This document shows, piece after piece, positions 3,523-63,574 of a stretch of DNA of 64,000 bases. The translations under genes were made by a program, and so were the position numbers. Origin of the DNA: Pseudomonadota bacterium. Lineage in GTDB: Bacteria > Pseudomonadota > Gammaproteobacteria > Steroidobacterales > Steroidobacteraceae. Where the stretch lies: NCBI GenBank assembly GCA_023391335.1, contig JAEWBG010000059.1, positions 504 through 64,503 on the forward strand. Reading direction: 5' to 3'. Each line of letters starts with the position of its first letter. The stretch's first letter is position 1. The notes under the pieces are model-generated. The model was not told where the DNA came from. It saw nothing but the letters and a program-made list of their open reading frames with translations, and did no database searches.

Positions 3523-3773
3523 GAAGAATATTTCCACGGAGGACACGGAGAGCACGGAGGAATGGACGCAACACAAAGATCGCATAGGTCGAATACTAGA
3601 GGATTAAGCCATCGGTCCATCGATCCGAGCCTGAAATCGAGCAGCGGATCTGCGGGTGGCTTTCGCGCTGTGGCTTCGCTAAGGCCTATAAATCAACCTT
3701 TGTGCGCTTTGTGTTGCGTCTTATTCTTGGATCTCTACTCCGTGATCCCCGTGTTCTCCGTGTGAAATTCTTC
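3523..3773. repeat. Family A palindromic element (CACGGAG units, 9-nt period), carrying a nested family E element
   Basis: The left arm is GAAGAATATTTC-CACGGAG-GA-CACGGAG-AG-CACGGAG, with units at 3535, 3544 and 3553. The right arm is CTCCGTG-AT-CCCCGTG-TT-CTCCGTG-TGAAATTCTTC, with units at 3738, 3747 and 3756, and is its reverse complement. The element fills the gap between the convergent stop codons 3519-3521 and 3775-3777. Confidence 0.85.
3564..3720. repeat. Family E palindromic element (GGACGCAACACAAAG arms) nested inside the family A element
   Basis: GGACGCAACACAAAGATCGCA (3564-3584) and TGTGCGCTTTGTGTTGCGTC (3701-3720) are reverse complements. The same arm pair recurs at 30031/30131 and as a solo arm at 18229. 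Confidence 0.8.
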
Positions 3774-3774
3774 T

Positions 3775-4428
3775 TTATTTCCAGCCGCCAGCCGCATTCG
3801 TCGCGGCTTGATTCAGCGGCCGAGCAATCAATCCTGATTGCGTAATCGCCACTTGATACCGAGCGCCGTCAGCCATCGGCAAATACGTCGCGCTGCCATA
3901 GACCGCATCCACGAACGGCAACCAGCGTGGATACTGTGTCGAGAGAGTCCATAGATCGATGCCGGGATTCTCGCTCAAGGGATAGACGGTCCGTTCGGCG
4001 CGGCGTTCTTGATCGATATCGCGATAGCGGCCGCTGACTCGTTCCAATCGATATTGCGCATCCAATCCCAGTAAGGTTGCCCAACCGCGCCACTTCAGCA
4101 CGCGCGCGTCGAGTTGCCACTCATCGCCAGCAAGCACAAAGGTCTGCATCTCGCCGCTCGGCACTTGCGTGAGCGTCGCTGCGAATCGTTGTGGGCCTCG
4201 GGCTTCGAAAACGATCTCTGCAACCGGCTCTTCGTGCGTCAGTCGCGCATAAGTGTGCAGATTGGTGGTGATTAAGAAGCCTACTGCAGCTGCACCGAGC
4301 AACACCAATCCCGCGAGAGCGCTTCCTCCTGCAGCAAGGAACCGCGCTCGCACTAACCGCTGGGTCGCAAGAGCCAGGAGCAATAAGCCGAAGATCGCTA
4401 TGACAATGACGACTGCATTAGAAGGCAT
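3775..4428 (-). CDS. hypothetical membrane protein (two N-terminal TM helices plus a ~150-aa C-terminal domain)
   Basis: Track ORF 3775..4467. I prefer the ATG at 4428 (MPSNAVVIVIAIFGLLLLAL...), which sits 14 nt after the hutH stop and is preceded by AGGAG/AAAGG. Hydrophobic segments are VVIVIAIFGLLLLALA and LAGLVLLGAAAVGFLI. I do not recognise a family. Confidence 0.5.
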   Translation of the reverse strand: MPSNAVVIVIAIFGLLLLALATQRLVRARFLAAGGSALAGLVLLGAAAVGFLITTNLHTYARLTHEEPVAEIVFEARGPQRFAATLTQVPSGEMQTFVLAGDEWQLDARVLKWRGWATLLGLDAQYRLERVSGRYRDIDQERRAERTVYPLSENPGIDLWTLSTQYPRWLPFVDAVYGSATYLPMADGARYQVAITQSGLIARPLNQAATNAAGGWK

Positions 4429-4441
4429 CCTTTCGCAACTC

Positions 4442-5962
4442 CTAGGACGTGAAGGCACCCAATGCATCCGATCCGATCAACCTGGTGAGGATCGCGATAT
4501 CGCGATCCAAACGATGATCGAAAGGACGATAGGGTACGTGTTGCCGGACTAAAGTCTGAACTTGCTGCAGAGCTTGCGTCGTCGCCAGCGGTTGCTGCTT
4601 ATCGACCGCATGCGCTGCGGCGAGCAATTCCACCGCGAGTACTTGGGCTGTGTTCTCGCAAATGCGCAACAACTTGTAACCGGCCCAGGGCGCCATGCTC
4701 ACGTGGTCCTCTTGCCCCGCCGAGGTCGGAACGTTGTCGACGGAAGCGGGGTGAGCAAGCGTTCTGTTCTCTGATGTCAGGGCAGCGGCCGCGACATGCG
4801 CGATCATGAAACCCGATTCCAGGCCGGGCTCTGTCGTGAGAAACATGTTCAAGGCCGGATTGACTCGTCGATCGAGCAAGTCCGTCCGCCGCTCCGACAT
4901 ACTAGCCAGTTCCGCAACCGCGATAGCCAAGTAGTCGCTGATCATTGCGAGCGGTTCGGCGTGGAAGTTTCCACCTGAGAGAATGTCCGTCTCGAAAATC
5001 AGCGGATTGTCGGTCACCGCATTGATTGCCTTCTCGAGCACGTCACGTGCGTGTGCTATAGACGCCTCTATCGCGCCGAATACTTGCGGCATGCAGCGCA
5101 CTGCGTACGGATCTTGAACGCGATCGCAGTTTTCGTGGTCGAGATGAATTGCGCTCTCGGTGAGCAGTTTGCGAAAGCGGCGCGCGACTTCGATTTGGTG
5201 CGGCGATCGGCTCGCACGCTGAATGCGTTCGTCGAAAGGTGTGTAGCTGCCCGCTAAGCCATCGACCGTCAATGCGCCGGTGACGATCGCTGCGTCGAGC
5301 AATGTTTCGGCTCGGAACAAGCCTTCGAGTGCGAGAGCCAGACTCAGTTGCGTGCCGTTGACGAGCGCCAGCCCTTCTTTCGCTTCTAGCGTGAACGGCT
5401 CAAAACCTGCGGCTGCACAAACGGCAGCGCCTTCAAGCCGTTGCTCCCGATGAATAGCTTCTCCTTCACCTATCAACGCCAGCGCCATGTGCGCAAGCGG
5501 CGCGAGATCTCCAGAGGCACCGACCGAGCCGCGCTCGGGAATGATCGGCAGAACGTCGCGGTTGACCATGGCCACAAGCGCATCGACGAGTTCGGGCCGA
5601 ATGCCTGACAGGCCAGCTGCGAGACTGTTCGCTTTGAGCAGCAGCATGCGGCGAGTGAGTTTCGCCTCCAGCGGTTTGCCAATGCCGCTGGCGTGGCTAC
5701 GAATCAAATTGAGCTGCAATTGCTTAACTTGATCGGCAGAGATGCGCTTGTTTGCGAATGCGCCAAAGCCGGTCGTGATGCCGTAGCTGACCTGATTTGC
5801 GGCGACGGCATCCCGCACAACCTGAGCGCTGCGAGACATGCGCTCGCGAGCGCTGTGTGCAATCTCGACTTCTCTGCCTTGCGAATCGAAGCGTCGCAGC
5901 ACCGCCAACGTCAGCGACTCGCCGTCAAGGCTGAGCGGTGAGTTGGCGGCGGCGGAGGTCAC
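4442..5962 (-). CDS. hutH: histidine ammonia-lyase (MIO-dependent aromatic amino acid lyase family)
   Basis: The MIO-forming triad is present in GSVGASGDLAPLAH, along with YGITTGFGAFAN. The selectivity-switch position reads LIRSHASGIG (Ser-His, as in HALs). GTG start at 5962. Confidence 0.85.
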   Translation of the reverse strand: MTSAAANSPLSLDGESLTLAVLRRFDSQGREVEIAHSARERMSRSAQVVRDAVAANQVSYGITTGFGAFANKRISADQVKQLQLNLIRSHASGIGKPLEAKLTRRMLLLKANSLAAGLSGIRPELVDALVAMVNRDVLPIIPERGSVGASGDLAPLAHMALALIGEGEAIHREQRLEGAAVCAAAGFEPFTLEAKEGLALVNGTQLSLALALEGLFRAETLLDAAIVTGALTVDGLAGSYTPFDERIQRASRSPHQIEVARRFRKLLTESAIHLDHENCDRVQDPYAVRCMPQVFGAIEASIAHARDVLEKAINAVTDNPLIFETDILSGGNFHAEPLAMISDYLAIAVAELASMSERRTDLLDRRVNPALNMFLTTEPGLESGFMIAHVAAAALTSENRTLAHPASVDNVPTSAGQEDHVSMAPWAGYKLLRICENTAQVLAVELLAAAHAVDKQQPLATTQALQQVQTLVRQHVPYRPFDHRLDRDIAILTRLIGSDALGAFTS

Positions 5963-5965
5963 GAT

Positions 5966-7697: not shown

Positions 7698-7729
7698 AAA
7701 CGGCAAACGGCAAACGGCAAACGGCAAAA
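7698..7729. repeat. perfect heptamer tandem repeat (AAACGGC)x4
   Basis: AAACGGC AAACGGC AAACGGC AAACGGC AAAAC. It lies 55 nt upstream of the ettA ATG and reads GCCGTTT x4 on the ettA sense strand. Confidence 0.9.
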
Positions 7730-9398: not shown

Positions 9399-10658
9399 AT
9401 GTTCCCCGCTAACACTCGCATCGCCGATTTCGACCCCGAACTGCAGCAATCCATCGACGCGGAAAAGCAGCGTCAGGAAGATCACATCGAGTTGATCGCT
9501 TCGGAAAATTACGCCAGCCCGCGCGTCCTGGAGGCACAAGGTTCGGTGCTCACGAACAAGTACGCTGAAGGCTATCCCGGCAAGCGCTACTACGGCGGCT
9601 GCGAGTTTGTCGATATCGCGGAGAAGCTCGCGATCGATCGCGCCAAGAAGTTGTTCGGCGCCGCATACGCGAACGTACAGCCTCACTCCGGTTCGCAAGC
9701 AAATGCTGCCGCGTACCTTGCACTGGTGAATCCAGGCGACACGATTCTCGGCATGAGCTTGGATCATGGCGGGCATCTCACGCACGGCGCGAAGGTCAAC
9801 TTCTCAGGCAAGGTGTTCAAAGCCGTTCAATACGGACTGAATCCTGCAACTGGCGAGATCGACTACGAGCAAGTCGAACGCCTCGCACAGGAGCATCGTC
9901 CGCGGCTAGTGATCGCAGGATTTTCGGCGTATTCGCGAGTCGTCGATTGGGCGCGCTTTCGCAAGATTGCGGATTCGATCGGCGCCTACTTCCTCGTCGA
10001 TATGGCGCACGTTGCAGGTCTCGTTGCAACTGGCGTGTATCCTAGCCCCATTCCACATGCTGACGTCGTGACGACAACGACTCACAAGACGCTGCGCGGT
10101 CCCCGCGGTGGCATGATCTTGGCGCGCGCGAACGAGGAAATTGAGAAGAAACTCAACTCGCTCGTGTTCCCTGGAACCCAGGGCGGCCCGTTGATGCACG
10201 TGATTGCGGCAAAGGCGGTTTCCTTCCTCGAAGCCCTGCAGCCCGAATTCACGACGTATCAACAGCAAGTGCTCGCAAACTCGCGTGCCATGGCAGCGGC
10301 CTTGATGAAGCGCGGTTACAAGATCGTTTCAGGCGGCACTGACAATCACTTGTTCCTTCTCGATCTGATCGACAAGAACATCACCGGAAAGGATGCAGAC
10401 GCCGCACTCGGCCGCGCGCACATCACCGTGAACAAGAATGCGGTGCCAAACGATCCGCGTCCGCCGTTTGTGACCAGCGGTCTGCGTATTGGAACGCCTG
10501 CAGTCACTACACGCGGCTTCAAGGAAGCCGAAGTCACGGAACTCGCGAACTGGATTGCCGACGTTCTCGACGAAAATGGCAGCGAAGGCGTCATCAACCG
10601 CGTTCGCGGCAAGGTCGAGGAGATCTGCAAGCGCTTTCCGGTGTACGCGCCAGGGTGA
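9399..10658 (+). CDS. glyA: serine hydroxymethyltransferase
   Basis: 419 aa. The PLP-lysine block [16 protein letters not shown] is present, GGAGGG lies upstream of the ATG, and similarity to SHMT runs the full length. Confidence 0.95.
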
Positions 10659-10745
10659 GGGAGTGAGTAAAGTGAGGAAGTGAAAGGCGACAGTCAGTGC
10701 TACTCAGCAACGACGTTCACCTCCTCACCACCCTCACTTTCTCAC
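10653..10745. repeat. Family D palindromic element (GTGAG-rich arms)
   Basis: The left arm is GGGTGAGGGAGTGAGTAAAGTGAGGAAGTGAAAGG (10653-10687) and contains the glyA stop TGA 10656-10658. The right arm is TTCACCTCCTCACCACCCTCACTTTCTCAC (10716-10745). 23 of 30 positions are complementary, and the GTGAG cores are conserved. Confidence 0.8.
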
Positions 10746-10751
10746 AATCCC

Positions 10752-11270
10752 ATGTACTGCCCCTTCTGCAATCACGAGGAAACCAAAGTCATCGACTCGC
10801 GATTGGCCGGTGAAGGTCAGCAGATCCGCCGGCGTCGCGAGTGCCTCAAGTGCGGCGAGCGTTTCACGACGTTCGAATCCGCAGAGCTCGTCATGCCGCG
10901 CATCGTGAAAAGCGACTCCAGTCGCGAGCCCTTCGATGAGCAGAAGCTCCGCAACAGCATGCTCAAGGCACTAGAAAAGCGTCCCGTTGCGAGCGAGGCG
11001 GTGGATGCGGCTGTCGCGCATATTTGCCACAAGCTGCGCACCTTGGGCGAACGCGAAGTCGCCTCGCGACTGATCGGTGAGCTCACGATGGAAGAGCTGC
11101 ATCACTTGGATGAAGTGGCGTACGTGCGTTTTGCATCCGTGTATCGGAGCTTCCAAGACGTCGATGCGTTTCGCGAAGAGATCGAGCGCATGCGCCACCG
11201 CCGCACTCGCGAAGAAACCGAAAATCAGCTCGCGCTTTGGACCGGCTCCGAGCCGCCGAAGAAGCGTTGA
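10752..11270 (+). CDS. nrdR: transcriptional repressor NrdR
   Basis: [18 protein letters not shown] forms the zinc ribbon (with CLKCGERF), followed by an ATP-cone. The ATG at 10752 matches the usual NrdR N-terminus. Confidence 0.9.
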
Positions 11271-12992: not shown

Positions 12993-14113
12993 ACTCCACC
13001 TCTGGGCTCAAGCTCAATAGCATCGATGAGATTCTCGCGGACATTCGTGCGGGCCGTATGGTCGTGATCATGGACGACGAAGATCGCGAGAACGAAGGCG
13101 ATCTCGTGATGGCTGCGGAGTTCGCACGCGCTCAAGACATCAACTTCATGGCGAAATACGGTCGCGGATTGATTTGTTTGACGCTCACGCGAGAACGTTG
13201 CCGCCAACTGCGGTTGCCTTTGATGGTCGGCGACACGGATCTCGATCACCGCACGAACTTCACGGTTTCGATCGAGGCGGCCGAAGGGGTGACGACCGGA
13301 ATCTCGGCACATGACCGCGCGCAGACGATCCGTGCTGCAGTTCGGCGGAATGCCCAGCCCGAAGACCTACGGCAGCCCGGCCATATATTTCCGTTGATGG
13401 CGCAACCGGGTGGCGTACTCGCGCGCGCAGGTCACACCGAAGCGGGATGCGATCTCGCACGCTTGGCCGGCCTTGAGCCCGCGGCCGTCATTGTCGAGAT
13501 CCTCAATGAAGACGGCACGATGGCGCGTCGTCCCGATCTTGAAACCTTCGCGCGGCAACATCAATTGAAGATCGGGACGATCGCGGATTTGATCCGTTAT
13601 CGACTCGAGAAGGATCGCTCGATCGAGCGTATCGACGAACAAGAAGTGGCAACGGAATTCGGACGATTCCGTATGTACTCGTACGAGGATCACGTCAATC
13701 GAACCGTGCATCTCGCGTTGGTGCGCGGCGACTTGCGCGGCCCAGATGCTCCGCTCGTGCGCGTGCATCTTCGCGATACCTTGCGCGATGTGGTCGGGAT
13801 TCAAGACGACAAGCTCGGGTTGCCGTTGCGCGCTGCATTGAAGCGTATTTCGCAAGAGCAGCACGGGGCGGTTGTGATCCTGCGCCCGGAGGAATCACCT
13901 CGCGATCTCGTAGAAGCCGTCCAAACGATCCATGCCAATCATCAAGCCGAGCCGCCCCGGCCGATTTCGGGAGCGACCGTCCTGCGAACCTACGGCATCG
14001 GCGCGCAGATCCTGCGCGACCTTGGCGTCAAACGCATGCGAGTCCTGTCCGCGCCGAAGCAGATGCATGGCCTGTCGGGGTTCGATCTGGAAGTTGTGGA
14101 GTATGTGAGTTAG
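12989..14113 (+). CDS. ribB: 3,4-dihydroxy-2-butanone-4-phosphate synthase fused to a degenerate GTP cyclohydrolase II-like domain (RibBX-type)
   Basis: The N-terminal DHBPS block is [21 protein letters not shown]. The C-terminal half aligns to GCH II, but the region equivalent to VRVHSECLTGD...CDCG reads [14 protein letters not shown] and has no Cys ligands. Its ATGA overlaps the ribE stop. Confidence 0.85.
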
Positions 14114-14273
14114 GAGAAGAGTCTCCACGGAGCACACGGAGGGCACGGAGCGGAAATGCAAAAGGAAGCCGTTGTGACGGCAAATTCGATTTTGCGCTCC
14201 ATTGATGGGGAAACTTCAAGCGATTCCCAATACTCATCTCCGTGTTCTTGTGATCTCTGTGCAGATATCTTCC
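14113..14273. repeat. Family A palindromic element (CACGGAG, 9-nt period)
   Basis: The left arm is GGAGAAGAGTCTC-CACGGAG-CA-CACGGAG-GG-CACGGAG, with units at 14126, 14135 and 14144. The right arm is CTCCGTG-TT-CTTGTG-AT-CTCTGTG-CAGATATCTTCC, with units at 14238, 14247 and 14255. It begins on the last base of the ribB stop. Confidence 0.85.
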
Positions 14274-14330
14274 GGTTCTTAGGTGCGAAGGTCGTCTAGG
14301 CGGCTATACTTCCCGCCCCGAATTCCACCC

Positions 14331-15395: not shown

Positions 15396-15423
15396 CATTC
15401 GCTATCCGCAATCCGCTATTCAC
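15396..15423. repeat. solo family B arm (pyrimidine orientation)
   Basis: CATTCGCTATCCGCAATCCGCTATTCAC is the reverse complement of GTGAATA-GCGGATT-GCGGATA-GCGAATG. It ends 13 nt before the thiL ATG. I see no partner arm after the nusB stop. Confidence 0.7.
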
Positions 15424-15436: not shown

Positions 15437-16396
15437 ATGCCCCTCGGCGAATTCGAGATCATCGCGCGCTACTTCAAGAAGCCAACGTCAGGCGACGTCT
15501 TGCTGGGCATCGGCGATGACGCCGCGGTGGTTTCGATCCCCTCGAGTCAGCGACTGGTCGTCGCTGTCGATACCATCGTCGAAGGCGTTCACTTTCCGGT
15601 TGGCACCGATGCCGCTGACGTGGGTTACCGCGCGCTGGCGGTGAACTTGAGCGACCTTGCTGCGATGGGATCGGTGCCGAAATGGATGACCCTCTCGCTC
15701 AGTCTCCCGGACAATGATGCGCAATGGCTAGACGGCTTTGCGTCCGGATTGTTCGATCTCGCACGCAAATTCAATGTGCAATTGATCGGCGGTGACACGG
15801 TTCGTGGGCCGCTCGTTGTGACCATCCAAATTGCCGGGTGGGTGGAGAGCAATCGTTGGTTGACTCGATCGGGTGCACAAGTGGGCGATCTGATCTTCGT
15901 CTCGGGCCACGTTGGCGATGCTGCAGGCGGACTCGCGGCGATTCAGCAAGCGATGCCGGAGGTCGAGTCGACCCGCTACTTGAAGCAACGATTCTTGCGT
16001 CCCGAGCCTCGCATCTCCTTGGGCAGGACGTTGCGAGACTTTGCGAGCGCTTGCATGGATATCTCGGATGGGCTGCTCACGGATCTCGACAAGCTTTGCA
16101 CCGCAAGCGGTGTAGGGGCTGAGATCGATGCCGATCGCTTGCCGCTGTCCTCGCAGCTTCGCGATGCTTTCGACATGGAGCGGGTTTTATCTTTTGCGCT
16201 CGCGGGGGGCGATGATTACGAGCTGCTGTTCACTTCTCACGCAGCGGATCAGTCTCGACTGCAGAACCTAAAAATACCGGTGACGCAAATCGGCAGGATC
16301 ACGGCGGATCGAACCGTTCGATGCGTGCGGAGCGGCAAGGAGTTCGATCCCAATACGCGCGGCTACGATCACTTCAAACCAGGTGCGAAGCGATGA
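15437..16396 (+). CDS. thiL: thiamine-monophosphate kinase
   Basis: MPLGEFEIIARYF and GIGDDAAVV, an AIR-synthase-like fold, 319 aa. Confidence 0.85.
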   Translation: MPLGEFEIIARYFKKPTSGDVLLGIGDDAAVVSIPSSQRLVVAVDTIVEGVHFPVGTDAADVGYRALAVNLSDLAAMGSVPKWMTLSLSLPDNDAQWLDGFASGLFDLARKFNVQLIGGDTVRGPLVVTIQIAGWVESNRWLTRSGAQVGDLIFVSGHVGDAAGGLAAIQQAMPEVESTRYLKQRFLRPEPRISLGRTLRDFASACMDISDGLLTDLDKLCTASGVGAEIDADRLPLSSQLRDAFDMERVLSFALAGGDDYELLFTSHAADQSRLQNLKIPVTQIGRITADRTVRCVRSGKEFDPNTRGYDHFKPGAKR

Positions 16397-16869
16397 AGTG
16401 GTCTGCCGATCCGTCGATACTGCGTCAACCGGTGCACCTTTTCGCATTCGGATTCGGCGCGGGATTGAGTCCCAAAGCTCCGGGCACGTTCGGTACATTG
16501 ATCGCCATTCCGATCGTCATCGTGGCGATGCATTTCGGTTGGATGACGCATTTGGCCTTCACGCTGATTGCGTGTCTTGCCGGAATCTACATTTGCGGCG
16601 AGTCAGCTAGGCGTCTGGGGGTCCACGATCATTCCGGCATCGTGTGGGATGAGATCACCGGATATTCCGTGACGATGTTGGCAGCTCCAGCAAATTGGTA
16701 CTGGTTGCTGGGCGGATTCGCGCTGTTCCGGTTCTTCGACATCGTCAAGCCCTGGCCGATCCGGGAGGCCGATCACAGTCTCTCCGGCGGGCTGGGAATT
16801 ATGCTGGATGACATCATTGCAGGTGTTTTCGCTGGTGCGATCTTGCTTGCGGTGAAGTTACTCATCTGA
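16393..16869 (+). CDS. pgpA: phosphatidylglycerophosphatase A
   Basis: GFGAGLSPKAPGTFGTL and FRFFDIVKPWPI are present. I chose the ATG at 16393, which overlaps the thiL stop (ATGA). Confidence 0.85.
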   Translation: MKWSADPSILRQPVHLFAFGFGAGLSPKAPGTFGTLIAIPIVIVAMHFGWMTHLAFTLIACLAGIYICGESARRLGVHDHSGIVWDEITGYSVTMLAAPANWYWLLGGFALFRFFDIVKPWPIREADHSLSGGLGIMLDDIIAGVFAGAILLAVKLLI

Positions 16870-16889
16870 CGCTTGATAACCAAAAGCCT

Positions 16890-18197
16890 GTGAACTCAAC
16901 GAGCGCCCCGACCGTTCAGCGCAGCGCACCGACGCGCGATTCGCGTATTCCGGAACGCATCGGCAAATACGTCATCGTCAAGGAAGTGGGGCGCGGCAGC
17001 ACGGGCGTCGTCTATCTTTCGCACGATCCGTACTATCGCCGCGACGTCGCCATCAAGGTCTACAACCTCGAATCGCACGACGAAGACCGCGCGCGCGTCA
17101 CGCACAAAATGTTTCTTTCGGAAGCGCACATGGTCGGCATGCTGCAGCATCCGAACATCCTTCCTATCTACGATGCGGGCGAGGAGAACGGTCACTACTA
17201 CATCGTCACCGAACACGTTCACGGCGCGCGCACGCTATCGGCGTACTGCAAGCCCGACAACCTGCTGCCTGTCGATGATGTCGTGGAGATCATGTACAAG
17301 TGCGCGAAGGCGTTGCACTACGCGCACAGTCGTGGCGTGATCCATCGCGATATCAAACCGTCGAACTTGATGCTCACGCAGGCCAATGACGTTCGCATCA
17401 TCGATTTCGGTATCGCGTTGGTTCAAGACTCGGAGATCTCTCGTATCGACGGCATCGCCGGCAGCCCTTCGTACATGTCGCCGGAGCAGGTGCAATCGCT
17501 CGATATCACGAATCGCTCCGATCTGTATTCGCTCGGTGCAGTGATGTACGAGATGCTCACCGGGTACCGACCATTCCGCGGCGGCAATCTTTCGAAGCTG
17601 CTGCATCAGATTGTTTACGCGACGCCTCAACCGATTCACGTGCTGCGTCCGGACATTCCAGAGGTACTGGAGAACACCGTAGCCAAGGCGCTGCAGAAGG
17701 ACCCGGCAAAGCGTTATCGCAACGGCTTAGAACTCGCGGCGGATCTGACTCGCGTGCACCAGACGATCCGCGACGGCTCGTCGAAGATCGACAAGCAAGA
17801 GCAATTCTCGATCCTACGCACGCTCAAGTTCTTCCATGACTTCTCGCAAGCCGAGATTCTCGAAGTGCTGCGCGCGAGCACTTGGCAGGATTACGAAGAA
17901 GGCGAGGAGATCGTCAAAGAAGGCGAGATGGACGATCGCTTCTACGTGATTGTCTCAGGCAGCGTCGCCGTGATGCGCAACGGCAAAGCGGTCGGCCAGC
18001 TGGATGAAGGCGACTGCTTCGGTGAAACCAGCTACGTTCGCGGCGCGAAACGCTTGGCGACGATCAAGGCACTCTCCGCAGTGACCTTGATGAAGGTCAG
18101 CTCGACGCTGCTGGAGCAGGGTTCTGCTGCGTGTCAGTTGCGATTCAACAAAGTCTTCTTGCGCAGCTTGATCAGCCGCTTGCAGAGCGTCAGCTGA
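16890..18197 (+). CDS. Hanks-type Ser/Thr protein kinase with a C-terminal cyclic-nucleotide-binding domain
   Basis: Kinase blocks are VIHRDIKPSNLML, IIDFGIAL and GSPSYMSPEQ. The C-terminal cNMP fold is FYVIVSGSVAV...GDCFGETSYV...RLATIKA. GTG start. Confidence 0.8.
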   Translation: MNSTSAPTVQRSAPTRDSRIPERIGKYVIVKEVGRGSTGVVYLSHDPYYRRDVAIKVYNLESHDEDRARVTHKMFLSEAHMVGMLQHPNILPIYDAGEENGHYYIVTEHVHGARTLSAYCKPDNLLPVDDVVEIMYKCAKALHYAHSRGVIHRDIKPSNLMLTQANDVRIIDFGIALVQDSEISRIDGIAGSPSYMSPEQVQSLDITNRSDLYSLGAVMYEMLTGYRPFRGGNLSKLLHQIVYATPQPIHVLRPDIPEVLENTVAKALQKDPAKRYRNGLELAADLTRVHQTIRDGSSKIDKQEQFSILRTLKFFHDFSQAEILEVLRASTWQDYEEGEEIVKEGEMDDRFYVIVSGSVAVMRNGKAVGQLDEGDCFGETSYVRGAKRLATIKALSAVTLMKVSSTLLEQGSAACQLRFNKVFLRSLISRLQSVS

Positions 18198-18228
18198 CGC
18201 ATAGCGCGCGAAGCGAGACTAAGATTTC

Positions 18229-18263
18229 GGACGCAACACAAGGAACGCAAAGAACAAGAAAAA
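18229..18263. repeat. solo family E arm
   Basis: GGACGCAACACAAGGAACGCAAAGAACAAGAAAAA lies 31 nt after the kinase stop. It is followed by the hairpin GAACGCA(18274-18280)/TGCGTTC(18297-18303). Confidence 0.65.
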
Positions 18264-18433
18264 TAGCCGCAGAGAACGCAAAAAAGAAATCCAAGGTGCG
18301 TTCTGCCCGATTCGTCGAAGCTCGTGTCTACATGAGTAGTGCGCTTGCTTCCCGAATCGATGACGGCCGGTCCTCGTCAGGGTGACAAGCTTGGTGTTGG
18401 CACACGGGGGGCCTCGAATTCACACTGTCAACC

Positions 18434-18485
18434 GTGACCCGTGACCTCTTGCTAGTCACTAGTCACTAGTCACCAGTCACTTCTC
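18434..18485. repeat. Family B mini-palindrome overlapping the folE2 stop codon
   Basis: GTGACCC-GTGACC (18434-18446), then TCTTG, then CTAGTCAC-TAGTCAC-TAGTCAC-CAGTCAC-TTCTC (18452-18485). On the folE2 strand this reads GAGAAG-TGA..., so the folE2 TGA (18477-18479) lies in the first GTGACT unit. Confidence 0.8.
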
Positions 18486-19292
18486 TTTCTCTATCAATGC
18501 ATACGCCGAGTGATTGTGGATCGACTCGAAGTTCTCCGCTTCGACGACATAAGCGCGCACGCGAGGTTCATTGTTGAGGCGGACAGCGACGTCGCGGACA
18601 ATGTCTTCGACGAACTTCGGATTGTCGTAGGCGCGCTCGGTCACGTACTTCTCGTCGGGGCGCTTGAGAATCCCGTACACCTCGCAGGAAGCTTCGTCTT
18701 CTGCGATATCGATGAGTTCTTCCAGCCACATGTGGCCGTCGATGCGCGCCTTGATCGTGATATGCGAGCGCTGGTTGTGAGCACCGTAATCAGAGATGCG
18801 CTTCGAGCACGGGCACAAGCTGGTCGCGGCGACGACGACTTTGATCCAAAGCTCCGACTCCCCGTTGTGCAGTTCGCCGATCAGTGAGGCCTGATAGTTC
18901 ATCAAGCTCTCCACGCCCGAGACGGGCGCCTTCTTCATCACGAAAAACGGAAATTCCATTTCGATGTGGCCGGACTTCGCGTCCAGCTTCTCGGTCATTT
19001 CAGCGAGGATGTCGCGAAACGACTCGACGGATATCTCACGTTCGTTGCGATGTAGCACTTCGACAAAGCGCGACATGTGCGTGCCTTTGAAGTCATGAGG
19101 CAGCGCGACGTACATATTGAAGTTCGCGATCGTGTGCTGCTCGCCGCTAGCGCGATCTTTCACCCGTACCGGATGGTAGACATCTTTGATTCCAACCTTA
19201 TTGATCGGAATCCGGCGCGAATCGGCGCGGCTCTGCACATCTTCGATGACAGAGGCGGCGGATTTATTGAGTGTGTCTGAAGAGCTGGCCAT
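18477..19292 (-). CDS. folE2: GTP cyclohydrolase FolE2 (type IB)
   Basis: 271 aa. The blocks [15 protein letters not shown] and [25 protein letters not shown] match what I recall of the GCYH-IB family. Confidence 0.8.
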
Positions 19293-19393
19293 AACAGAGG
19301 GCGGATTGGGGTCGCCCGGCGGTAATCAAGTGCGGCGCAGTATAAGCGAAGGCCCCGGCGTGCGCCGGGTGCGGCGGGGAAAGAGTGAATTTC

Positions 19394-21280: not shown

Positions 21281-21353
21281 AAGAAGGCGCGCAGTTTACA
21301 GGAAACCTCGGGGAAGCTCGTGGCCTGTAAGCGGATTTCCGAGTTGCGCCGGA

Positions 21354-22253: not shown

Positions 22254-22261
22254 GCGGCAGC

Positions 22262-22516
22262 TCAGGTTTCGTCGTCGCTGTCGAATTCTGCGCGCTCGAA
22301 TTGCTCGGGCTCGCCGCTGCGCCGCAGAAGAATCTCGACCTTTTGTTCGGCCTGCTTGAGAGCAGCTTGGCAGGTGCGAGTAAGTTGCACGCCGCGTTCG
22401 AAACACTTCAGGGATTCATCGAGCGAGAGATCGCCTTGCTCGAGCTTTTCGACTAGCGCTTCGAGTTCAGTCAACGAGCGTTCGAAATCGGCGGGCGGCG
22501 TTTGCGGTTCGGCCAT
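22262..22516 (-). CDS. xseB: exodeoxyribonuclease VII small subunit
   Basis: 84 aa from the ATG at 22516. [33 protein letters not shown] is typical XseB. Confidence 0.85.
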
Positions 22517-22612
22517 GTCGGTGAGTACAGATCTGGGCGGGTACGAGGGCGCGGCAAGCTTGCATTCCTGCCTGCGACCGGTCAAATGCACAACGTGACT
22601 AAAGTTCGGTCG

Positions 22613-22641
22613 TTGACTTGCCTGACAGGCGGGCATAGATT
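22613..22641 (+). promoter_or_regulatory. candidate sigma70 promoter for the rubrerythrin cluster
   Basis: TTGACT (22613-22618), a 17-nt spacer, then TAGATT (22636-22641). It lies 143 nt upstream of the rubrerythrin ATG. Confidence 0.5.
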
Positions 22642-22651
22642 CGCACCCGCA

Positions 22652-23200: not shown

Positions 23201-23233
23201 CTAGTGACTTGTGACTAGTGACTAGCGGATAGG
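23201..23233. repeat. solo family B arm (purine orientation) immediately after the rubrerythrin stop
   Basis: CTAGTGACTTGTGACTAGTGACTAGCGGATAGG starts on the base after TAA 23198-23200. Confidence 0.8.
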
Positions 23234-23241
23234 TCAGAAAA

Positions 23242-23265
23242 CTCGCGCCCGATCTCGGGCGCGAG
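23242..23265. terminator. perfect GC-rich hairpin (possible terminator)
   Basis: CTCGCGCCCGA-TC-TCGGGCGCGAG has an 11-bp perfect stem. It is preceded by AAAA, and there is no T-tract on the + strand, so function and direction are uncertain. Confidence 0.4.
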
Positions 23266-23313
23266 TGGTCGACGATCCAAAGCGATTTAGCGGAAGACAG
23301 ACGGCTGGTTGGG

Positions 23314-23356
23314 TCTCTGGCTCCAGCCCCGGGTCTCCGGTCTCCAGCCTCCAGCC
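23314..23356. repeat. solo family C arm (pyrimidine orientation)
   Basis: TCTCTGG-CTCCAGC-CCCGGG-TCTCCGG-TCTCCAG-CCTCCAG-CC is the reverse complement of GGCTGGAG-type units. It ends 11 nt before the ATG at 23368. Confidence 0.75.
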
Positions 23357-23367
23357 TGCGAAGCTCC

Positions 23368-24717: not shown

Positions 24718-24753
24718 GAAAGGATCTCCGCGGAGCTCACCGAGCACACGGAG
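24718..24753. repeat. solo family A arm (purine orientation)
   Basis: GAAAGGATCTC-CGCGGAG-CT-CACCGAG-CA-CACGGAG, with units at 24729, 24738 and 24747 (9-nt period). It starts right after the stop TAG 24715-24717. Confidence 0.75.
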
Positions 24754-24774
24754 AAACGACCTCAGGAACTTGCT

Positions 24775-25398: not shown

Positions 25399-25575
25399 GG
25401 AGGTATCTCCACGGAGTACACGGAGAGCACGGAGAGAAGATAAACGATCGGAACTGAGCGAACGTTGAAGGACCACGGCTCGTGGCGTCCGATCAATCAT
25501 TGCGCCCGTTCTCTCCAGTTCTGAGGCCGTTCTCCGTGTCCTCTGTGCTCTCCGTGGAGATATTCCTTTTCTTCC
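25399..25575. repeat. Family A palindromic element (CACGGAG, 9-nt period)
   Basis: The left arm is GGAGGTATCTC-CACGGAG-TA-CACGGAG-AG-CACGGAG, with units at 25410, 25419 and 25428. The right arm is CTCCGTG-TC-CTCTGTG-CT-CTCCGTG-GAGATATTCCTTTTCTTCC, with units at 25532, 25541 and 25550. Confidence 0.85.
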
Positions 25576-27583: not shown

Positions 27584-27759
27584 GGAGAAGTGACTGGCGG
27601 ATAGCGGATAGCGGATTGGAACAGAGGACATAGGTCCACCTCCGTCGTTTAGCTAAAGGCTGGTACTTCGATCGCGACTGCCTCGCATGATCGTATCCAA
27701 GGCAATGCAGATGTCGTTTCGCCGGTTCGTGCTTCTTCTATCCGCTAGTCACTAGTCAC
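27584..27759. repeat. Family B palindromic element filling the parE-parC junction
   Basis: The left arm is GGAGAA-GTGACTG-GCGGATA-GCGGATA-GCGGATT-GG (27584-27619). The right arm is CTTCTTC-TATCCGC-TAGTCAC-TAGTCAC (27732-27759). The unit numbers differ between the arms. Confidence 0.85.
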
Positions 27760-27774
27760 CATCCAACTTCCTAC

Positions 27775-30030: not shown

Positions 30031-30153
30031 GACGTAACACAAAGAGCACATAAATTCGAAAGTAGGTCGGCTCGTTCGATACGCAACGCGCCGTCTGTGA
30101 CCCCAGCCCGATCGTTTTTCGATTTTTCTCTGCGCGCTTTGTGTTGCGTCCGG
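30031..30153. repeat. Family E palindromic element between convergent parC and the FimX-like gene
   Basis: GACGTAACACAAAGAGCACA (30031-30050) pairs with TGCGCGCTTTGTGTTGCGTCCGG (30131-30153). About 20 of 23 positions are complementary. Confidence 0.8.
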
Positions 30154-33995: not shown

Positions 33996-34040
33996 GAGCT
34001 AGTGACTCGCGGATAGCGGATAGCGGATAGAAGAAAAAAG
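33996..34040. repeat. solo family B arm (purine orientation) directly after the efp stop
   Basis: GAGCTA-GTGACTC-GCGGATA-GCGGATA-GCGGATA-GAAGAAAAAAG. I see no convincing partner arm before the convergent gene at 34143. Confidence 0.8.
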
Positions 34041-34142
34041 CGTGGGTCGGGGATCGTGGATCGCCGAACCCTGCCGCACACGGATGTGCTAATGCCGCGG
34101 GAGGCAGGACGCTGAGAGCGGCCGAACCCGGATGTGACCTGC

Positions 34143-37136: not shown

Positions 37137-38033
37137 ATGAGTAATCCGTTGCCCACAAAAACTGTCCGACAGTGGATTGAATTCGGCGCTGCCAAGTTCG
37201 ATGAGGCGGGGCTATGGTTCGGCCACGGATCCGACAACGCATTCGACGACGCCGCAGAACTCGTGTTCTTCGCTGCCGGATTGCGCCACGAAGAAGCGGA
37301 CTCTGTGTACAACCAGCCGGTCGCGAGCGGCCAAGCAGCTCGCATCAACGAACTCTTCGATCGACGCGTTCGCGAGCGCGTGCCCGCCGCTTACCTCACG
37401 CAGCGGATGTGGTTCGCGGGCCATGAGTTCTATGTCGATGAACGCGTGTTGGTTCCAAGATCTCCGATTGCGGAATTGATTGAGGCGCGATTCGAGCCTT
37501 GGATCGCGAGCGCGCGCATCCATCGACTGTTGGATATCGGTACCGGCTCTGGGTGCATCGCAATTGCGGCGGCTTTGGCGCTGCCCGACGCCCGAGTGGA
37601 TGCGAGCGATATTTCCGCCGATGCGCTCGAGGTCACGAAGATGAATATTGCGCGCTACGGACTCGAAGGGCGCGTGAGTGCCATTCAGTCCGATGTGTTC
37701 GATGGGCTTGGGTCAGCTCGCTACGACGTCATCGTCTCCAACCCTCCCTACGTGGGTGATGACGAGATGGCTTCCCTTCCGCACGAATACACGCGTGAGC
37801 CGCGCTTGGCGTTGCATTCCGGGGTCGATGGTTTGGATATCACACGTCGAATCCTGCAGGGCGCTCGCGAACATCTGACTGCCGGTGGAATCTTGATCGT
37901 CGAAGTCGGCAACTCTGAAGTCGCCTTGGAAGAAGCGTATCCCGAGGTGCCCTTTACCTGGCTCGAGTTCGAACGCGGCGGCGGCGGAGTGTTCGTGCTG
38001 ATGGCGGACCAGCTGGAAGCTAGTGACTGGTGA
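37137..38033 (+). CDS. prmB: 50S ribosomal protein L3 N5-glutamine methyltransferase
   Basis: The SAM block LDIGTGSGCIAIAAA and the catalytic VSNPPYV are present. It lies upstream of aroC, as in E. coli. The last four codons (ASDW) and the TGA lie inside family B repeat units. Confidence 0.8.
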   Translation: MSNPLPTKTVRQWIEFGAAKFDEAGLWFGHGSDNAFDDAAELVFFAAGLRHEEADSVYNQPVASGQAARINELFDRRVRERVPAAYLTQRMWFAGHEFYVDERVLVPRSPIAELIEARFEPWIASARIHRLLDIGTGSGCIAIAAALALPDARVDASDISADALEVTKMNIARYGLEGRVSAIQSDVFDGLGSARYDVIVSNPPYVGDDEMASLPHEYTREPRLALHSGVDGLDITRRILQGAREHLTAGGILIVEVGNSEVALEEAYPEVPFTWLEFERGGGGVFVLMADQLEASDW

Positions 38034-38234
38034 CTAGTGACTAGCGGATAGGAAGCCGATCCGGAGGGTAGATGGGATGATTCCTCGTAATCTCAGATTG
38101 GAAATCGAGTTACTGATGGCATGAGCTCGCCATTGATAGCCCCTCCGAGTTCACCCTGCAGCTGCGGATAGCGGCTAGAATGCCGCGCATCTTGGATCTC
38201 CTAGTCACTATCCGCTAGTCACTAGTCACTTCTC
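38016..38234. repeat. Family B palindromic element spanning the prmB 3' end to 6 nt before the aroC ATG
   Basis: The left arm is GAAGCTA-GTGACTG-GTGACTA-GTGACTA-GCGGATA-GGAAG, with units at 38023, 38030, 38037 and 38044. The right arm is CTCCTAGTCAC-TATCCGC-TAGTCAC-TAGTCAC-TTCTC (38198-38234). An extra internal GCGGATAGCGGCTAG lies at 38164-38178. Confidence 0.9.
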
Positions 38235-38240
38235 ATACCC

Positions 38241-43594: not shown

Positions 43595-43696
43595 GGCTAG
43601 AGGCTGGAGGCTATAGGCTGGAGGTAGGCGCACTTCGTGCGCTTCCGGTTTGCTATTCTGACCCCAGCCCCCAGTCTCCCGTCTCCAGCCTCTTCC
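43595..43696. repeat. Family C palindromic element (GGCTGGA heptamers) filling the fimV-truA junction
   Basis: The left arm is GGCTAGA-GGCTGGA-GGCTATA-GGCTGGA-GGTAGG (43595-43628, exact 7-nt phasing). The centre has the hairpin CGCAC-TTC-GTGCG. The right arm is CCCCAGC-CCCCAGT-CTCCCGT-CTCCAGC-CTCTTCC (43662-43696). Confidence 0.85.
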
Positions 43697-56657: not shown

Positions 56658-56660
56658 TTC

Positions 56661-56784
56661 CTAGTGGATAGCGGATGGCGGGCAGTGACTAGGAAGAGAG
56701 TCTTCCGAGACCGCCAAAAGTAGACCGCAGCGGGAAGTTTGGGCAGTTCTTCTGACCATTCACGATCCGCCAGTCACGAGTCAC
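56661..56784. repeat. Family B palindromic element between tRNA-His and tRNA-Lys
   Basis: The left arm is CTA-GTGGATA-GCGGATG-GCGGGCA-GTGACTA-GGAAG (56661-56696). The right arm is CTTCTGACCATTCAC-GATCCGC-CAGTCAC-GAGTCAC (56749-56784). It starts 3 nt after the tRNA-His CCA and ends 8 nt before tRNA-Lys. Confidence 0.8.
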
Positions 56785-61024: not shown

Positions 61025-63481
61025 GTGAGCACAGATACTCCCGAAAACGCATCCCCAGAGAACTCGCAACCTGGCAGCCCCACGGCGATCCCCGTGCTGC
61101 CGCTGCGTGATGTCGTCGTCTATCCCCACATGGTCATTCCACTGTTCGTGGGGCGCGAGAAATCCATTCTCGCCCTCGATCAGGCGATGCGCTCCGGCAA
61201 GCAGATTCTGCTGGTCGCCCAAAAGCAAGCCGATGTGGACGATCCCAGCGCTCAGGATCTGTACCGTCTAGGCACGGTCGCGACGATTCTGCAGTTGCTC
61301 AAGCTGCCGGACGGCACCGTCAAGGTGCTCGTTGAAGGTGCTGAGCGCGCCAAGATCGAGAAGCTCAACACCGGCCAATTCTTCTCGGCCGAGATCAGCC
61401 CATACAAAGATATCGAGCAGTACGACGACCGCGAAATGGATGTGCTCGCGCGTTCGGTGACGTCCCAGTTCGAGCAGTACGTAAAGCTGAATCGCAAGGT
61501 GCCGCCGGAGGTGCTGACAGCCCTTGCCGGCATCGAACAGCCTGGCCGACTCGCGGATAACGTGGCGGCGCACATGTCGCTGAAGCTCGATGCCAAGCAG
61601 AAGGTGCTCGAGATCCAAGACGTTCGCAAACGCCTCGAACACATCCTCGCTCTCATCGAAGGCGAAATGGATGTACTGCAAATCGAGAAGCGCATCCGTG
61701 GCCGCGTGAAGCAGCAGATGGAAAAGAGCCAGCGCGAGTACTACCTAAATGAGCAGATGAAGGCCATTCAGAAGGAACTCGGCGAAATCGAAGATGCACC
61801 GAACGAACTCGCTGAGCTCGAACAGCGTATTCAGAAGGCGGGCATGCCGAAGGAAGCGCGCGACAAGGCCATGTCAGAGCTCAACAAGTTGAAGCTCATG
61901 TCGCCGATGTCGGCTGAAGCCACGGTGGTGCGTAACTACGTCGATTGGCTGGTGAAGTGCCCTTGGAAGAAGAAGACCAAGGTGCATAACGACATCGCCT
62001 TTGCCGAGAAAGTGCTCGACGAAGATCACTACGGTCTCGAGAAGGTCAAAGAACGCATCGTCGAATATCTCGCCGTGCAGCAGCGTGTGAAGACCTTGAA
62101 AGGTCCGATTCTCTGCTTGGTCGGGCCCCCGGGTGTGGGCAAGACCTCGCTCGGTCAATCGATCGCGAGATCGACGAATCGCAAGTTTGTCCGCATGTCG
62201 CTCGGCGGCGTGCGCGATGAAGCTGAAATTCGCGGGCACCGCCGCACCTACATTGGTTCGATGCCCGGCAAGATCATTCAGAACATGGTGAAGACGGGTG
62301 TTCACAATCCGCTGTTCTTGCTGGATGAAATCGACAAGATGGCAATGGACTTCCGCGGCGATCCGTCATCCGCGTTGCTCGAGGTTCTCGATCCGGAGCA
62401 GAACTCCACGTTCAGCGATCACTATCTCGAGGTCGACTTCGATTTGTCTGAAGTGATGTTCGTTTGCACTGCGAACAGCCTAAATATTCCGGCTCCGTTG
62501 CTCGATCGTATGGAAGTAATTCGACTGCCTGGGTACACGGAAGACGAGAAGAGTGCGATCTCGCAGCGGTATCTGTTGCCTAAACAGAAGAAGCAGAACG
62601 GCTTGAAGGACGATGAGTTGAAAGTGTCCGAAGCGACGCTGCTCGACATCATTCGGTACTACACGCGCGAAGCCGGCGTTCGTAACCTCGAGCGCGAGGT
62701 GTCGAAGATCTGCCGCAAGGCCGTGAAGCAGTTGCTGGCCAAGCCCGACACGGGTGTCGTGAACGTCACGCCGAAGAACTTGAGCAAGTATCTGGGTGTA
62801 CGACGATTCCGCTACGGTCGTGCGGAGGAGCAAGATCATGTCGGTCAAGTGACTGGGCTTGCGTGGACCGAAGTCGGCGGCGAATTGCTGACGATCGAAG
62901 CAGCCGTGGTGCCCGGCAAGGGCAAACTCACGCACACCGGCCAACTCGGCGAGGTGATGCAGGAGTCGATTCAGGCAGCGATGACGGTCGTGCGTAGTCG
63001 CGCCGCGGTGCTGGGATTGGATGCTGATTTCTATCAGAAGGTCGACGTGCACATTCACGTGCCGGAAGGCGCAACGCCGAAAGACGGGCCGAGTGCGGGC
63101 ATCGGCATGTGCACAGCCCTCGTATCGTCGCTGACGAAAGTCCCAGTGCGTTCCGACGTGGCGATGACGGGCGAAATTACTTTGCGCGGACAGGTGCTCC
63201 CGATTGGCGGCCTGAAGGAGAAGCTGCTGGCGGCTCATCGCGGCGGCATTCGTACGGTCTTGATTCCCGACGACAACACTAAGGATCTGGCGGACATCCC
63301 GCAGAACATCAAGGACAGTCTCGAAATCAAGCCGGTGAAGTGGATTGATGAAGTCCTGCAAGTCGCGTTGACGCACATGCCTGCTCCTACGCAGGCCGCT
63401 ACCGACGCACCACGCGCGAACGACAAAGGCCGCACGCGCCGCGTTGGAAAGCGCGCGAACAAGCAGGTGAGGGCGCATTAG
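61025..63481 (+). CDS. lon: Lon protease (LonA)
   Basis: 818 aa. The Walker A is [13 protein letters not shown] and the catalytic Ser block is [18 protein letters not shown] start. Confidence 0.95.
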
Positions 63482-63500
63482 ACGGCGACTACGTCGCCGT
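63482..63500 (+). terminator. hairpin immediately after the lon stop (weak terminator candidate)
   Basis: ACGGCGAC-TAC-GTCGCCGT has an 8-bp perfect stem. No T-tract follows. Confidence 0.3.
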
Positions 63501-63504
63501 GACC

Positions 63505-63574
63505 GGGTGAGGCGTTAGGGAAGTGAAACGTGGAGAGCGCGCCGAGCCGCGCTACACCTTTCACTTGCTCACCC
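63505..63574. repeat. Family D palindromic element (GTGAG-rich arms)
   Basis: GGGTGAGGCGTTAGGGAAGTGAAACGTGG (63505-63533) pairs with CCTTTCACTTGCTCACCC (63557-63574). The centre has the hairpin AGCGCG-CCGAGC-CGCGCT. The outer GGGTGAG and inner AAGTGAAA boxes match those at 10653-10745. Confidence 0.75.

Follow-up and report, generated by a model that had tools for sequence, protein, structure and literature searches.

The 64,000-nucleotide stretch of DNA analyzed here (the window) belongs to a soil Steroidobacteraceae gammaproteobacterium and carries, at 59% G+C, housekeeping genes on both strands, including purL, parE-parC, aroC, asd, fimV, a five-tRNA cluster and tig-clpP-clpX-lon. Between these genes lie small repeated elements in which two inverted arms, most of them built of short tandem units, enclose a center; these elements are the subject of this study. 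For comparison, we looked at about 700 kb of related loci, among them contigs of metagenome-assembled genomes (MAGs), which are designated by L-numbers. Two contigs of one Steroidobacteraceae MAG, L016 and L009, match window positions 16277-23265 at 93-99% identity, the AroC protein of the window is 97% identical to a Steroidobacteraceae protein, and L018 continues the right end of the window.

Number and placement of the elements

Tandem Repeats Finder (TRF) reported period-7 or period-9 arrays at 3535, 3738, 7698, 10655, 14126, 18452, 23200, 23342, 25410, 27597, 27745, 34009, 38020, 38201 and 43595, and an inverted-repeat search recovered six pairs (25404/25531, 3565/3686, 38020/38196, 43599/43668, 27590/27738 and 30031/30131). 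Reading the window site by site, we counted 12 inverted pairs and five solo arms in 64 kb: three pairs of family A, four of B, one of C, one of D, two of E and one mixed B/C pair (Table 1). Ordered arrays with units of seven, eight or nine nucleotides are present at about 16 intergenic sites. The sites listed in an original prediction made on this DNA all exist, at or within a few bases of where it had placed them. The architecture that it proposed is also real, non-random and intergenic. In 100 dinucleotide-preserving shuffles per pattern, no shuffle reached the observed count, with 11 matches in the window to GTGACNNGTGAC (0.10 expected), 12 to CACGGAGNNCACGGAG at up to two mismatches (0.82 expected) and eight to GCGGATAGCGGATA, again at up to two mismatches (0.60 expected). 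Once gene calls had been corrected with Pfam, nearly all of the 14 period-7 arrays fell inside the non-coding 9% of the window.

The cassettes sit exactly at gene ends, reaching from a stop codon to the next stop or start codon. All four convergent gaps hold an element, as do about 10 of the 29 co-directional ones; the four divergent gaps contain only one solo array. The 5' arms start 0-20 nucleotides past the stop codon, and two of them, at prmB and folE2, themselves provide it (for folE2, a TGA within the outermost unit of the B hairpin at 18434..18480). The 3' arms stop 10-15 nucleotides short of the next start codon. In each cassette the G- or purine-rich arm tends to lie on the 5' side, and it is the arms that are conserved, as ordered modules, and not the centers. 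No rRNA gene is present in the window; the elements have protein and tRNA genes as neighbors. Rfam searches of the window, run once with gathering thresholds and once with a cutoff of E <= 1, yielded no match to the elements, only the five tRNAs and two irrelevant weak matches; blastn of the A/E element and one B element against 72,556 plasmids likewise gave no match.

Several irregular arrangements that had been predicted were borne out. Family E arms are nested within family A arms (3523-3774), a B arm at 23204 is paired with a C arm at 23314-23357, solo arms stand at 15396, 24718, 33996, 7698 and 10653, and the arms at 27590 and 27739 have unequal unit numbers. The families themselves needed some revision. 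Family D exists at both proposed sites, 10653 and 63505, but with a period of eight. The family E arm, thought to consist of 7- to 9-nucleotide units, is instead an A-rich sequence of approximately 20-35 nucleotides and not a tandem array. The two units assigned to family B, GTGACTA (B1) and GCGGATA (B2), are variants of a single GYGRNTA unit with a preferred order, GTGAC units outermost.

Table 1. Repeat elements of the window, and related loci in which arrays flank a PF05635 gene
Feature	Position	Strand	Structure and surroundings
Family A 5' arm	3522..3561	+	purine box AGAAGAATATTTC then (CACGGAGNN)3, right behind purL stop (TAG 3519-3521)
Nested family E element	3564..3720	.	arms 3565-3599 and 3686-3720 (GGACGCAACACAAAG...), center 86 nt; found by inverted-repeat search
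Family A 3' arm	3738..3774	+	(CTCCGTGNN)3 then GAAATTCTTCTT; ends at stop of convergent gene 3775-4467
Solo (AAACGGC)4.4 array	7698..7728	+	found by TRF; divergent intergenic region upstream of ABC-F gene
Solo family D array	10653..10687	+	(GTGAGNNA)4, period 8; spans stop/start junction of genes 9399-10658 and 10680-11270
Family A element	14114..14278	.	5' arm 14114-14152, GAGAAGAGTCTC then (CACGGAGNN)3; 3' arm ~14238-14278, degenerate; between gene ending 14113 and ribH; fold z = -3.4
Solo family B 3'-type arm	15396..15423	+	(TATCCGC/AATCCGC/TATTCAC); 13 nt upstream of start codon 15437
E-like arm modules	18229..18307	+	GGACGCAACACAAGGAACGCAAAGAAC, then GCCGCAGAGAACGCAAAAAAGA with short partner TGCGTTCTGC; compared with L013 pair
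Compact family B hairpin	18434..18480	.	(GTGACCC)2, loop, (CTAGTCA)3 CCAGTCAC
Mixed B/C pair	23201..23357	.	B 5' arm 23201-23233; GC-rich hairpin 23243-23267; C 3' arm (TCCAGCC)n 23314-23357, 10 nt ahead of start 23368; downstream of rubrerythrin gene
Solo degenerate family A 5' arm	24718..24756	+	immediately behind stop codon 24715-24717
Family A element	25399..25575	.	5' arm 25399-25443, 3' arm 25531-25575; fold z = -4.6
Family B element filling parE|parC	27584..27765	.	5' arm 27584-27617: GGAGAA, GTGACTG, (GCGGATA)3; 3' arm 27734-27759: TATCCGC then (TAGTCAC)2
Family E element	30031..30150	.	arms 30031-30050 and 30131-30150; between convergent parC and GGDEF-EAL gene; fold z = -3.1
Solo family B 5' arm	33999..34063	+	CTAGTGACTC, (GCGGATA)3, GAAGAA; four bases past efp stop
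Short (CGTGGAT)-like array	34041-34063		behind solo B 5' arm of efp
Family B element, prmB|aroC	38016..38235	.	5' arm 38016-38055, 3' arm 38196-38235; fold z = -5.6
Family C element, fimV-truA gap	43595..43693	.	5' arm (GGCTNGA)4 43595-43624; 3' arm 43668-43693
Family B element between tRNA-His and tRNA-Lys	56661..56784	.	5' arm 56661-56694, 3' arm 56750-56784
Family D hairpin downstream of lon	63505..63574	.	GGGTGAG..GAAGTGAAA, GC-rich tip, TTTCACTT..CTCACCC
PF05635 array-flanked loci	L018:2783-3294; L106:1433-1975; L108:1400-2096; L109:147-672; L110:1164-1614; L112:660-1245		

Two gene starts bear on these assignments. The longest open reading frame (ORF) for truA begins at GTG 43637, a position that falls within the family C element. 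The L102 and L104 sequences favor ATG 43700, which is most likely the start and would therefore leave the right arm of that element intergenic. The ABC-F gene probably starts near 7636. The start codons of aroC (38241) and parC (27775) have no recognizable Shine-Dalgarno sequence, and aroC lacks one in element-free relatives as well. A role for the outer purine box as a Shine-Dalgarno sequence positioned by the stem was rejected on the same observation in aroC and on the spacing, which would be 15-17 nucleotides. A 230-amino acid ORF (3775-4467, minus strand) without a Pfam match abuts the nested A/E element. On the minus strand at 13107-13207, within a coding region of the riboflavin operon, there is a sub-threshold Rfam match to the Vibrio antisense RNA V_AS9 (46.9 bits versus a gathering score of 50), which probably reflects coding-sequence conservation.

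Ordered arms and predicted stems

More than 30 family B arms, from the window and from related MAG loci, follow one order: a purine run (GAGAAGAA), GTGACTN units, GCGGATA units and GAAG. The B-arm loci were chosen through an exact 22-mer, which biases arm-versus-arm comparisons. The units GTGACTA, GCGGATA, GCGGTTA, GTGGATA and GGGGATA are one- to three-base variants of GYGRNTA, and the outermost units of the B arms are the most diverged. Ten family A arms, including one from L046, a relative whose ParC is 70% identical, have a common leader, (stop codon)-AGAAGAaTaTYTC(A), ahead of the CACGGAGNN units. Judging by this block structure, which arms of one family share between loci and in part between genera, the arms are homologous blocks and not independent products of slippage. 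The purine boxes that had been predicted at the outer ends are present there, but GAGAAG or GAAGAA also flanks the inner side, which gives the arrays a purine run on either flank.

Each arm is a direct tandem array and is not itself palindromic. Between partner arms, cores of five to seven nucleotides match at approximately 95%, whereas the spacers of one or two nucleotides are unpaired, and the stem should thus be a row of short helices with small internal loops. In the A element at 25399..25575 the 32-nucleotide arm cores are 84% complementary; in the prmB|aroC element 22 nucleotides of the arms are 100% complementary. Of 37 pairs, 35 had the higher G content in the 5' arm and 36 had the higher purine content there. 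Because an inverted repeat reads identically on both strands, this polarity is a real constraint, and it extends across at least 12 unit families. All-against-all comparison of 28 centers with blastn-short found no homology except nested arms and short GC-rich hairpin tips, in agreement with the original prediction that centers are unrelated.

Single strands of the gaps that contain pairs are predicted to fold into long, imperfect hairpins, closing off the untranslated gap over its full length, with the arms as terminal stem (z between -3.1 and -7.1 versus shuffled controls, the lowest value being that of the nested A/E element, 3519-3777). With respect to compensatory pairing, the rare units shared by partner arms are out of register, which gives no sign of selection for pairing. 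A GC-rich stem-loop followed by a T-run, satisfying the terminator consensus, is found inside the B pair of L006, and many B pairs at related loci enclose GC-rich hairpins flanked by GAAGAA and TTCTTC.

Several candidate explanations for the units themselves were tried and set aside. G-quadruplex formation as a shared explanation is contradicted by most window units (GTGACTA, GCGGATA, CACGGAG, GGCTGGA and AAACGGC), which lack G3 tracts; related loci do hold GGGACTC, GGGAATN and GGGGATA arrays. The idea that a 7-nucleotide period serves to place stop codons in all frames holds for GTGACTA, GCGGATA and GTGATGA but fails for CACGGAG, GGCTGGA, GGGACTC and GGGGAAC. CsrA-type GGA sites are present in only some units. 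DNA-uptake sequences, which in Neisseria and Haemophilus often form inverted terminator pairs, are ruled out by the many co-existing families and the tandem units.

Turnover at orthologous junctions

To see whether sites are filled or empty in relatives had been suggested as a check, and the outcome was positive. In most of 17 relatives parE and parC overlap or are separated by no more than approximately 25 nucleotides; the exceptions are gaps of approximately 40-150 nucleotides, none of which has array arms. In the window, a B element of 191 nucleotides occupies the same junction; in L046 it is an A element of approximately 300 nucleotides (8 + 4 units). L102 has 19 nucleotides between efp and GAF; the window has a B arm there and L101 an A arm. 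The prmB|aroC junction is bare in L104; it holds a two-unit remnant in L102, (GCGGTTA)3-4 arms in L101 and B arms in the window. The 5' arm in the window replaces the last codons of prmB, and the center contains an older (GCGGNTA)2 GAATGCCGCG segment (38164-38190) that is orthologous to the L101 and L102 arrays. This segment makes a single insertion of the whole element hard to envisage and suggests separate addition of the arms or reshuffling of cassettes by recombination.

The kinase|folE2 gap has three different fillings in the window, L016 and L009, one of them with period-8 (GTGATGAN) arms; all three end at a common right boundary, and gene identity is 93-99%. Between window 18198-18476 and L016:1921-2082, identity is 94.6% left of the gap and 99.2% right of it. 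A recombination breakpoint between haplotypes therefore coincides with the gap, and recombination that swaps alleles may account for some of the turnover. The same layout is found in relatives with other units, (GGGGTTA)3-4 in L021, (CGGTTAT)2 in L025 and (GCGGTTA/G) in L104. Taken together, these comparisons show that the cassettes are insertions when set against related genomes, and that turnover at fixed junctions is rapid. The slippage that had been proposed to explain unequal arms fared less clearly: unit number differs between L112 and L114, an indirect indication in its favor, but arrays at two orthologous window sites are unchanged at approximately 7% divergence.

The exact 22-mer that selects B arms occurs on 17 stretches from three MAGs, two labeled Steroidobacteraceae and one labeled uncultured gammaproteobacterium; a single further copy, in a Bacteroidaceae MAG, is apparently a chance match. 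The MAG nearest to the window has at least 10 unit families and intergenic stretches of approximately 600 nucleotides crowded with arrays. Within such stretches, which hold four to six different heptamer arrays, sits a structured repeat of approximately 55 nucleotides (GCCGCACAYGGAYGTGCYAATGCCGCGRRAGGCAGGACGCYGAGAGCGGCC) without an Rfam match, often as tandem pairs (window 34070-34124; L002:5675-5792; L018:4239-4613; L010:77-182). Downstream of parC in L102 (1864-2130) is another repeat type, with units of approximately 20 nucleotides (GCCGTCATTCGGC...), together with a CCGGCCTGCGCCGGGATG hairpin that is present twice. Heptamer-array repeats break short-read assemblies. The Logan contig SRR13358416_2627 (L001), a short-read contig, starts at window 38201 and thus terminates within the prmB|aroC element, inside its 3' arm, and most contigs with PF05635 homologs are only 1-5 kb long.

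Proposed PF05635 cargo, known repeats and possible origins

In L018, a gene of 122 amino acids is bracketed by (GGGACTC)8 and (GAATCCC)3. Its product belongs to PF05635 (23S_rRNA_IVP), equivalent to TIGR02436 and Avd-like, a four-helix-bundle family that is described as functionally uncharacterized, is known from rRNA intervening sequences (IVSs) cleaved by RNase III, and is homologous to Avd, the accessory protein of diversity-generating retroelements. A PF05635 gene lies between inverted heptamer arrays in six of the six loci examined (L018, L106, L108, L109, L110 and L112). Homologs fetched with their flanks (L106, L108, L109, L110 and L112 to L116) are each array-bracketed with the G-rich side 5'; L109 is another Steroidobacteraceae MAG, and L110 is from Brevundimonas, an alphaproteobacterium. 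TRF found no intergenic arrays in L106, L109 and L110 other than those at the PF05635 gene. Unit number differs between L112 and L114 even though the neighboring protein is identical. Xanthomonas XCC0516 (PDB 2GSC) provides the only solved structure of a homolog (homology E = 1.4e-27), and according to the supplement of Rehm et al. 2015 (PMC4692102) it neighbors GGGAATC repeat no. 15, which overlaps the XCC0516 start codon. A literature search found no paper tying PF05635 to heptamer arrays.

The Xanthomonas arrays bear on more than the cargo. In two Xanthomonas genomes, Rehm et al. 2015 (PMC4692102) reported arrays of GGGAATC, and in Nostoc arrays of GGGGA(C/T)T. Those of Xanthomonas are intergenic, at most 50 bp from a stop codon (sense strand) or a start codon (antisense strand), rare between divergent genes, variable in unit number with a preference for four units, transcribed, and mostly conserved in position between the two species (83%); 70-75 convergent inverted array pairs occur per genome, an arrangement that is rare in Nostoc (PMC4692102). 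The arrays were read as G-quadruplex formers, with their function left open (PMC4692102). The original prediction, which recognized no described equivalent in proteobacteria, is contradicted by these paired arrays: the window sequences match no named family in Rfam and no plasmid, but the kind of repeat is already on record. The window heptamers are likewise tandem, non-coding, adjacent to stops and starts, variable in unit number, arranged in convergent inverted pairs and scarce in divergent gaps, in a gammaproteobacterial host. Xanthomonas has a single G-rich unit, and the Xanthomonas and Nostoc repeats (GGGNATC or GGGGAYT) have at least four G3 tracts; the window arrays instead comprise at least six families, mostly not G-quadruplex-capable, with periods of seven, eight and nine, arms that are ordered composites with a conserved leader, and families that replace one another junction by junction. 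Centers, nesting and polarity, which are added here, were not analyzed in that study.

Among other known repeats, the best architectural analogs are the eukaryotic Foldback (FB) transposons, reportedly described in Drosophila by Truett, Jones and Potter in 1981. They too have inverted arms of short tandem repeats, arms of unequal length within and between copies, and a heterogeneous, sometimes gene-bearing center; they are kilobase-scale, and the resemblance is in architecture only, without a known mechanistic connection. In cyanobacteria, heptamer arrays between genes have a record going back decades; in Xanthomonas they became known in 2015. The short tandemly repeated repetitive (STRR) heptamers of heterocystous cyanobacteria, reportedly described by Mazel et al. 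in 1990, were an apt comparison in the original prediction, having several co-existing, tandem, intergenic and lineage-specific families, although the host belongs to another phylum and the units (STRR1-3 and others) are unrelated to those of the window; its second precedent, the BOX elements, is a poor one.

rRNA IVSs resemble the elements as inserts with complementary ends that form a long stem, are sporadic among strains and in some cases carry a PF05635 gene. Their stems are cut by RNase III; none is known to have been reported as a heptamer array. The window elements differ in lying between protein or tRNA genes, not in a 16S or 23S rRNA helix, and in that none carries PF05635. Correia elements (also NEMIS, Neisseria miniature insertion sequences) are small intergenic inverted-repeat elements near genes, too. 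They are co-transcribed, form hairpins processed by RNase III, insert at TA, and have a conserved core and a fixed 26-bp terminal inverted repeat (TIR) without tandem units. Their copies thus share a core, whereas in the window only the arms recur. The poor fit to other classes that had been foreseen also held. Repetitive extragenic palindromic (REP) sequences, with their BIME (bacterial interspersed mosaic element) and REPIN (REP doublet hairpin) forms, are abundant intergenic hairpin-forming repeats at gene 3' ends with inverted doublets, but a REP is an imperfect palindrome of 20-40 nucleotides with a GTAG or CGTC tag, mobilized by a REP-associated tyrosine transposase (RAYT), whereas the window arms are not palindromic and no RAYT was seen among the selected window ORFs scanned against Pfam. 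CRISPR and integron attC do not fit sites with two inverted arms instead of a direct-repeat array. MITEs (miniature inverted-repeat transposable elements) share TIRs, as family members here share arms (a leader and ordered units, variable in number and order), but the centers of the window elements are non-homologous.

The best explanation that we can offer, and one to which we would give an even chance, is that the elements are lineage-specific fold-back repeat cassettes that spread by propagation. A cassette would consist of two inverted arms of short tandem units (five to seven conserved bases plus one or two free ones) around a nearly arbitrary center, and the arms would be the part that is copied or recognized, perhaps through a trans-acting factor recognizing the repeated cores or by microhomology-mediated or template-switch copying. 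Simple transposition of whole elements is disfavored by the solo arms, by the pair of mixed family and by the ancestral segment that another pair encloses. Purely local slippage is disfavored by cores that stay conserved while spacers vary freely, by conservation between genera and by the polarity that the families have in common. Once inserted, the elements would be co-transcribed with neighboring genes and probably act as RNA hairpins. The arm stem may then behave like the stem of an rRNA IVS, as double-stranded RNA processed by RNase III, an insulator, a 3'-end protector or a terminator extension, which would make insertions inside operons (parE-parC) or between tRNA genes tolerable. The window copies could be cargo-less relatives of the PF05635-carrying cassettes with like arms.

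A number of results weigh against this explanation. Partner arms are only modestly closer to each other than to non-partners (mean rank 8.9 versus 13.5 expected), and the rare units that they have in common are out of register. The older GCGGNTA segment at prmB|aroC lies inside the window B pair, next to the 3' arm. No two copies with a shared center, which would indicate movement of a whole element, and no mobilizing enzyme were found. Termini are often TA(G/A) followed by GAGAAG, and no clean case of target-site duplication was seen, no filled/empty pair being close enough for base-level comparison. At the RNA level, sense folds beat antisense folds in only six of nine co-directional cases, which is uninformative on selection, and strict terminator and promoter consensus searches found nothing at two window elements (23150-23400 and 63450-63700). 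The window itself lacks a PF05635 gene, and the cargo link is based on seven loci.

Some of these points would be expected if the elements were mutational by-products made without dedicated machinery, through heptamer slippage beside a hairpin, intrastrand template switching (quasi-palindrome correction) that mirrors the array, and microhomology copying via GAAGAA/TTCTTC that carries arrays between loci. The purine runs on both sides of the arrays, the GC-rich hairpins with GAAGAA/TTCTTC flanks inside many related-locus B pairs (including the terminator-like one of L006), the solo arms as intermediates, the out-of-register rare variants, the divergence concentrated in the outermost units as in slippage-evolving arrays, the ancestral segment within the prmB|aroC pair, and the polymorphism of unit number among samples are all in keeping with such a route. 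Recent mirror copying would not be expected to leave spacers unpaired while cores match at approximately 95%, and the retention of a 7-nucleotide core and leader at 70% ParC identity argues for sequence-specific recognition or selection. Nor does a strand-symmetric process predict G-rich 5' polarity over at least 12 families, and the PF05635 association is left unexplained. On balance, we consider the mutational route unlikely.

Strict conservation of cores with free spacers could also reflect selection for host cis-regulatory signals, whether arrays of protein-binding sites or structures such as a G-quadruplex, terminator extension, Rho shield or translational-coupling stem. Exact stop/start placement, avoidance of the divergent gaps that contain promoters, and the sequestration of the entire untranslated gap by the hairpin within operons fit this idea, as do the transcribed and position-conserved arrays of Xanthomonas (83%, two species; PMC4692102). 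It is distinctly unlikely nonetheless: the same junction is empty or holds another family in close relatives, in which housekeeping genes function without the elements; at least 10 families in one genome would need many specificities; and GTGACTA, GCGGATA and CACGGAG lack G3 tracts, so that a G-quadruplex is not the common factor. Classical MITEs, that is, deletion derivatives of DDE-type insertion sequences (for example, IS630/Tc1-like with a TA target) whose TIRs hold tandem transposase sites and which move as whole units by cut-and-paste, are very improbable: the arms do resemble TIRs of 35-45 nucleotides with a family-specific leader, TA(A/G) abuts many termini and there is same-site presence/absence between genomes, but no center is common to any two copies, one pair is of mixed family (23201/23314), an ancestral segment lies inside another, a clean target duplication was not seen, the approximately 700 kb of related loci revealed no insertion sequence with ends of this kind, no plasmid matched, and units of 7-9 nucleotides are short for transposase binding sites.

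A bolder form of the propagation hypothesis, which we regard as doubtful, would make heptamer-array fold-backs the ends of a widespread, unrecognized class of cassette whose full-length form carries a PF05635 gene. Such cassettes would be the source of rRNA intervening sequences, by landing in rRNA helices, as well as of the Xanthomonas GGGAATC repeats, the cyanobacterial STRRs and the cargo-less copies of the window. The small protein, or a partner that it recruits as Avd recruits reverse transcriptase, would recognize the cores, and RNase III would remove the stem from transcripts.

Paired arrays at gene ends are not new as an architecture, being on record in Xanthomonas and in similar form in the cyanobacterial STRRs. 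New here are the many co-existing families that do not form G-quadruplexes, the composite TIR-like arms, the rapid turnover at fixed junctions and the link to PF05635. The paired gene-end architecture is independent of units that form G-quadruplexes. The arms act like modules, ordered and specific to their family, which fixed junctions gain and exchange, and all families obey one strand polarity. The PF05635 link offers a testable handle on the role of that protein family, on the origin of rRNA intervening sequences and on how heptamer repeats spread.

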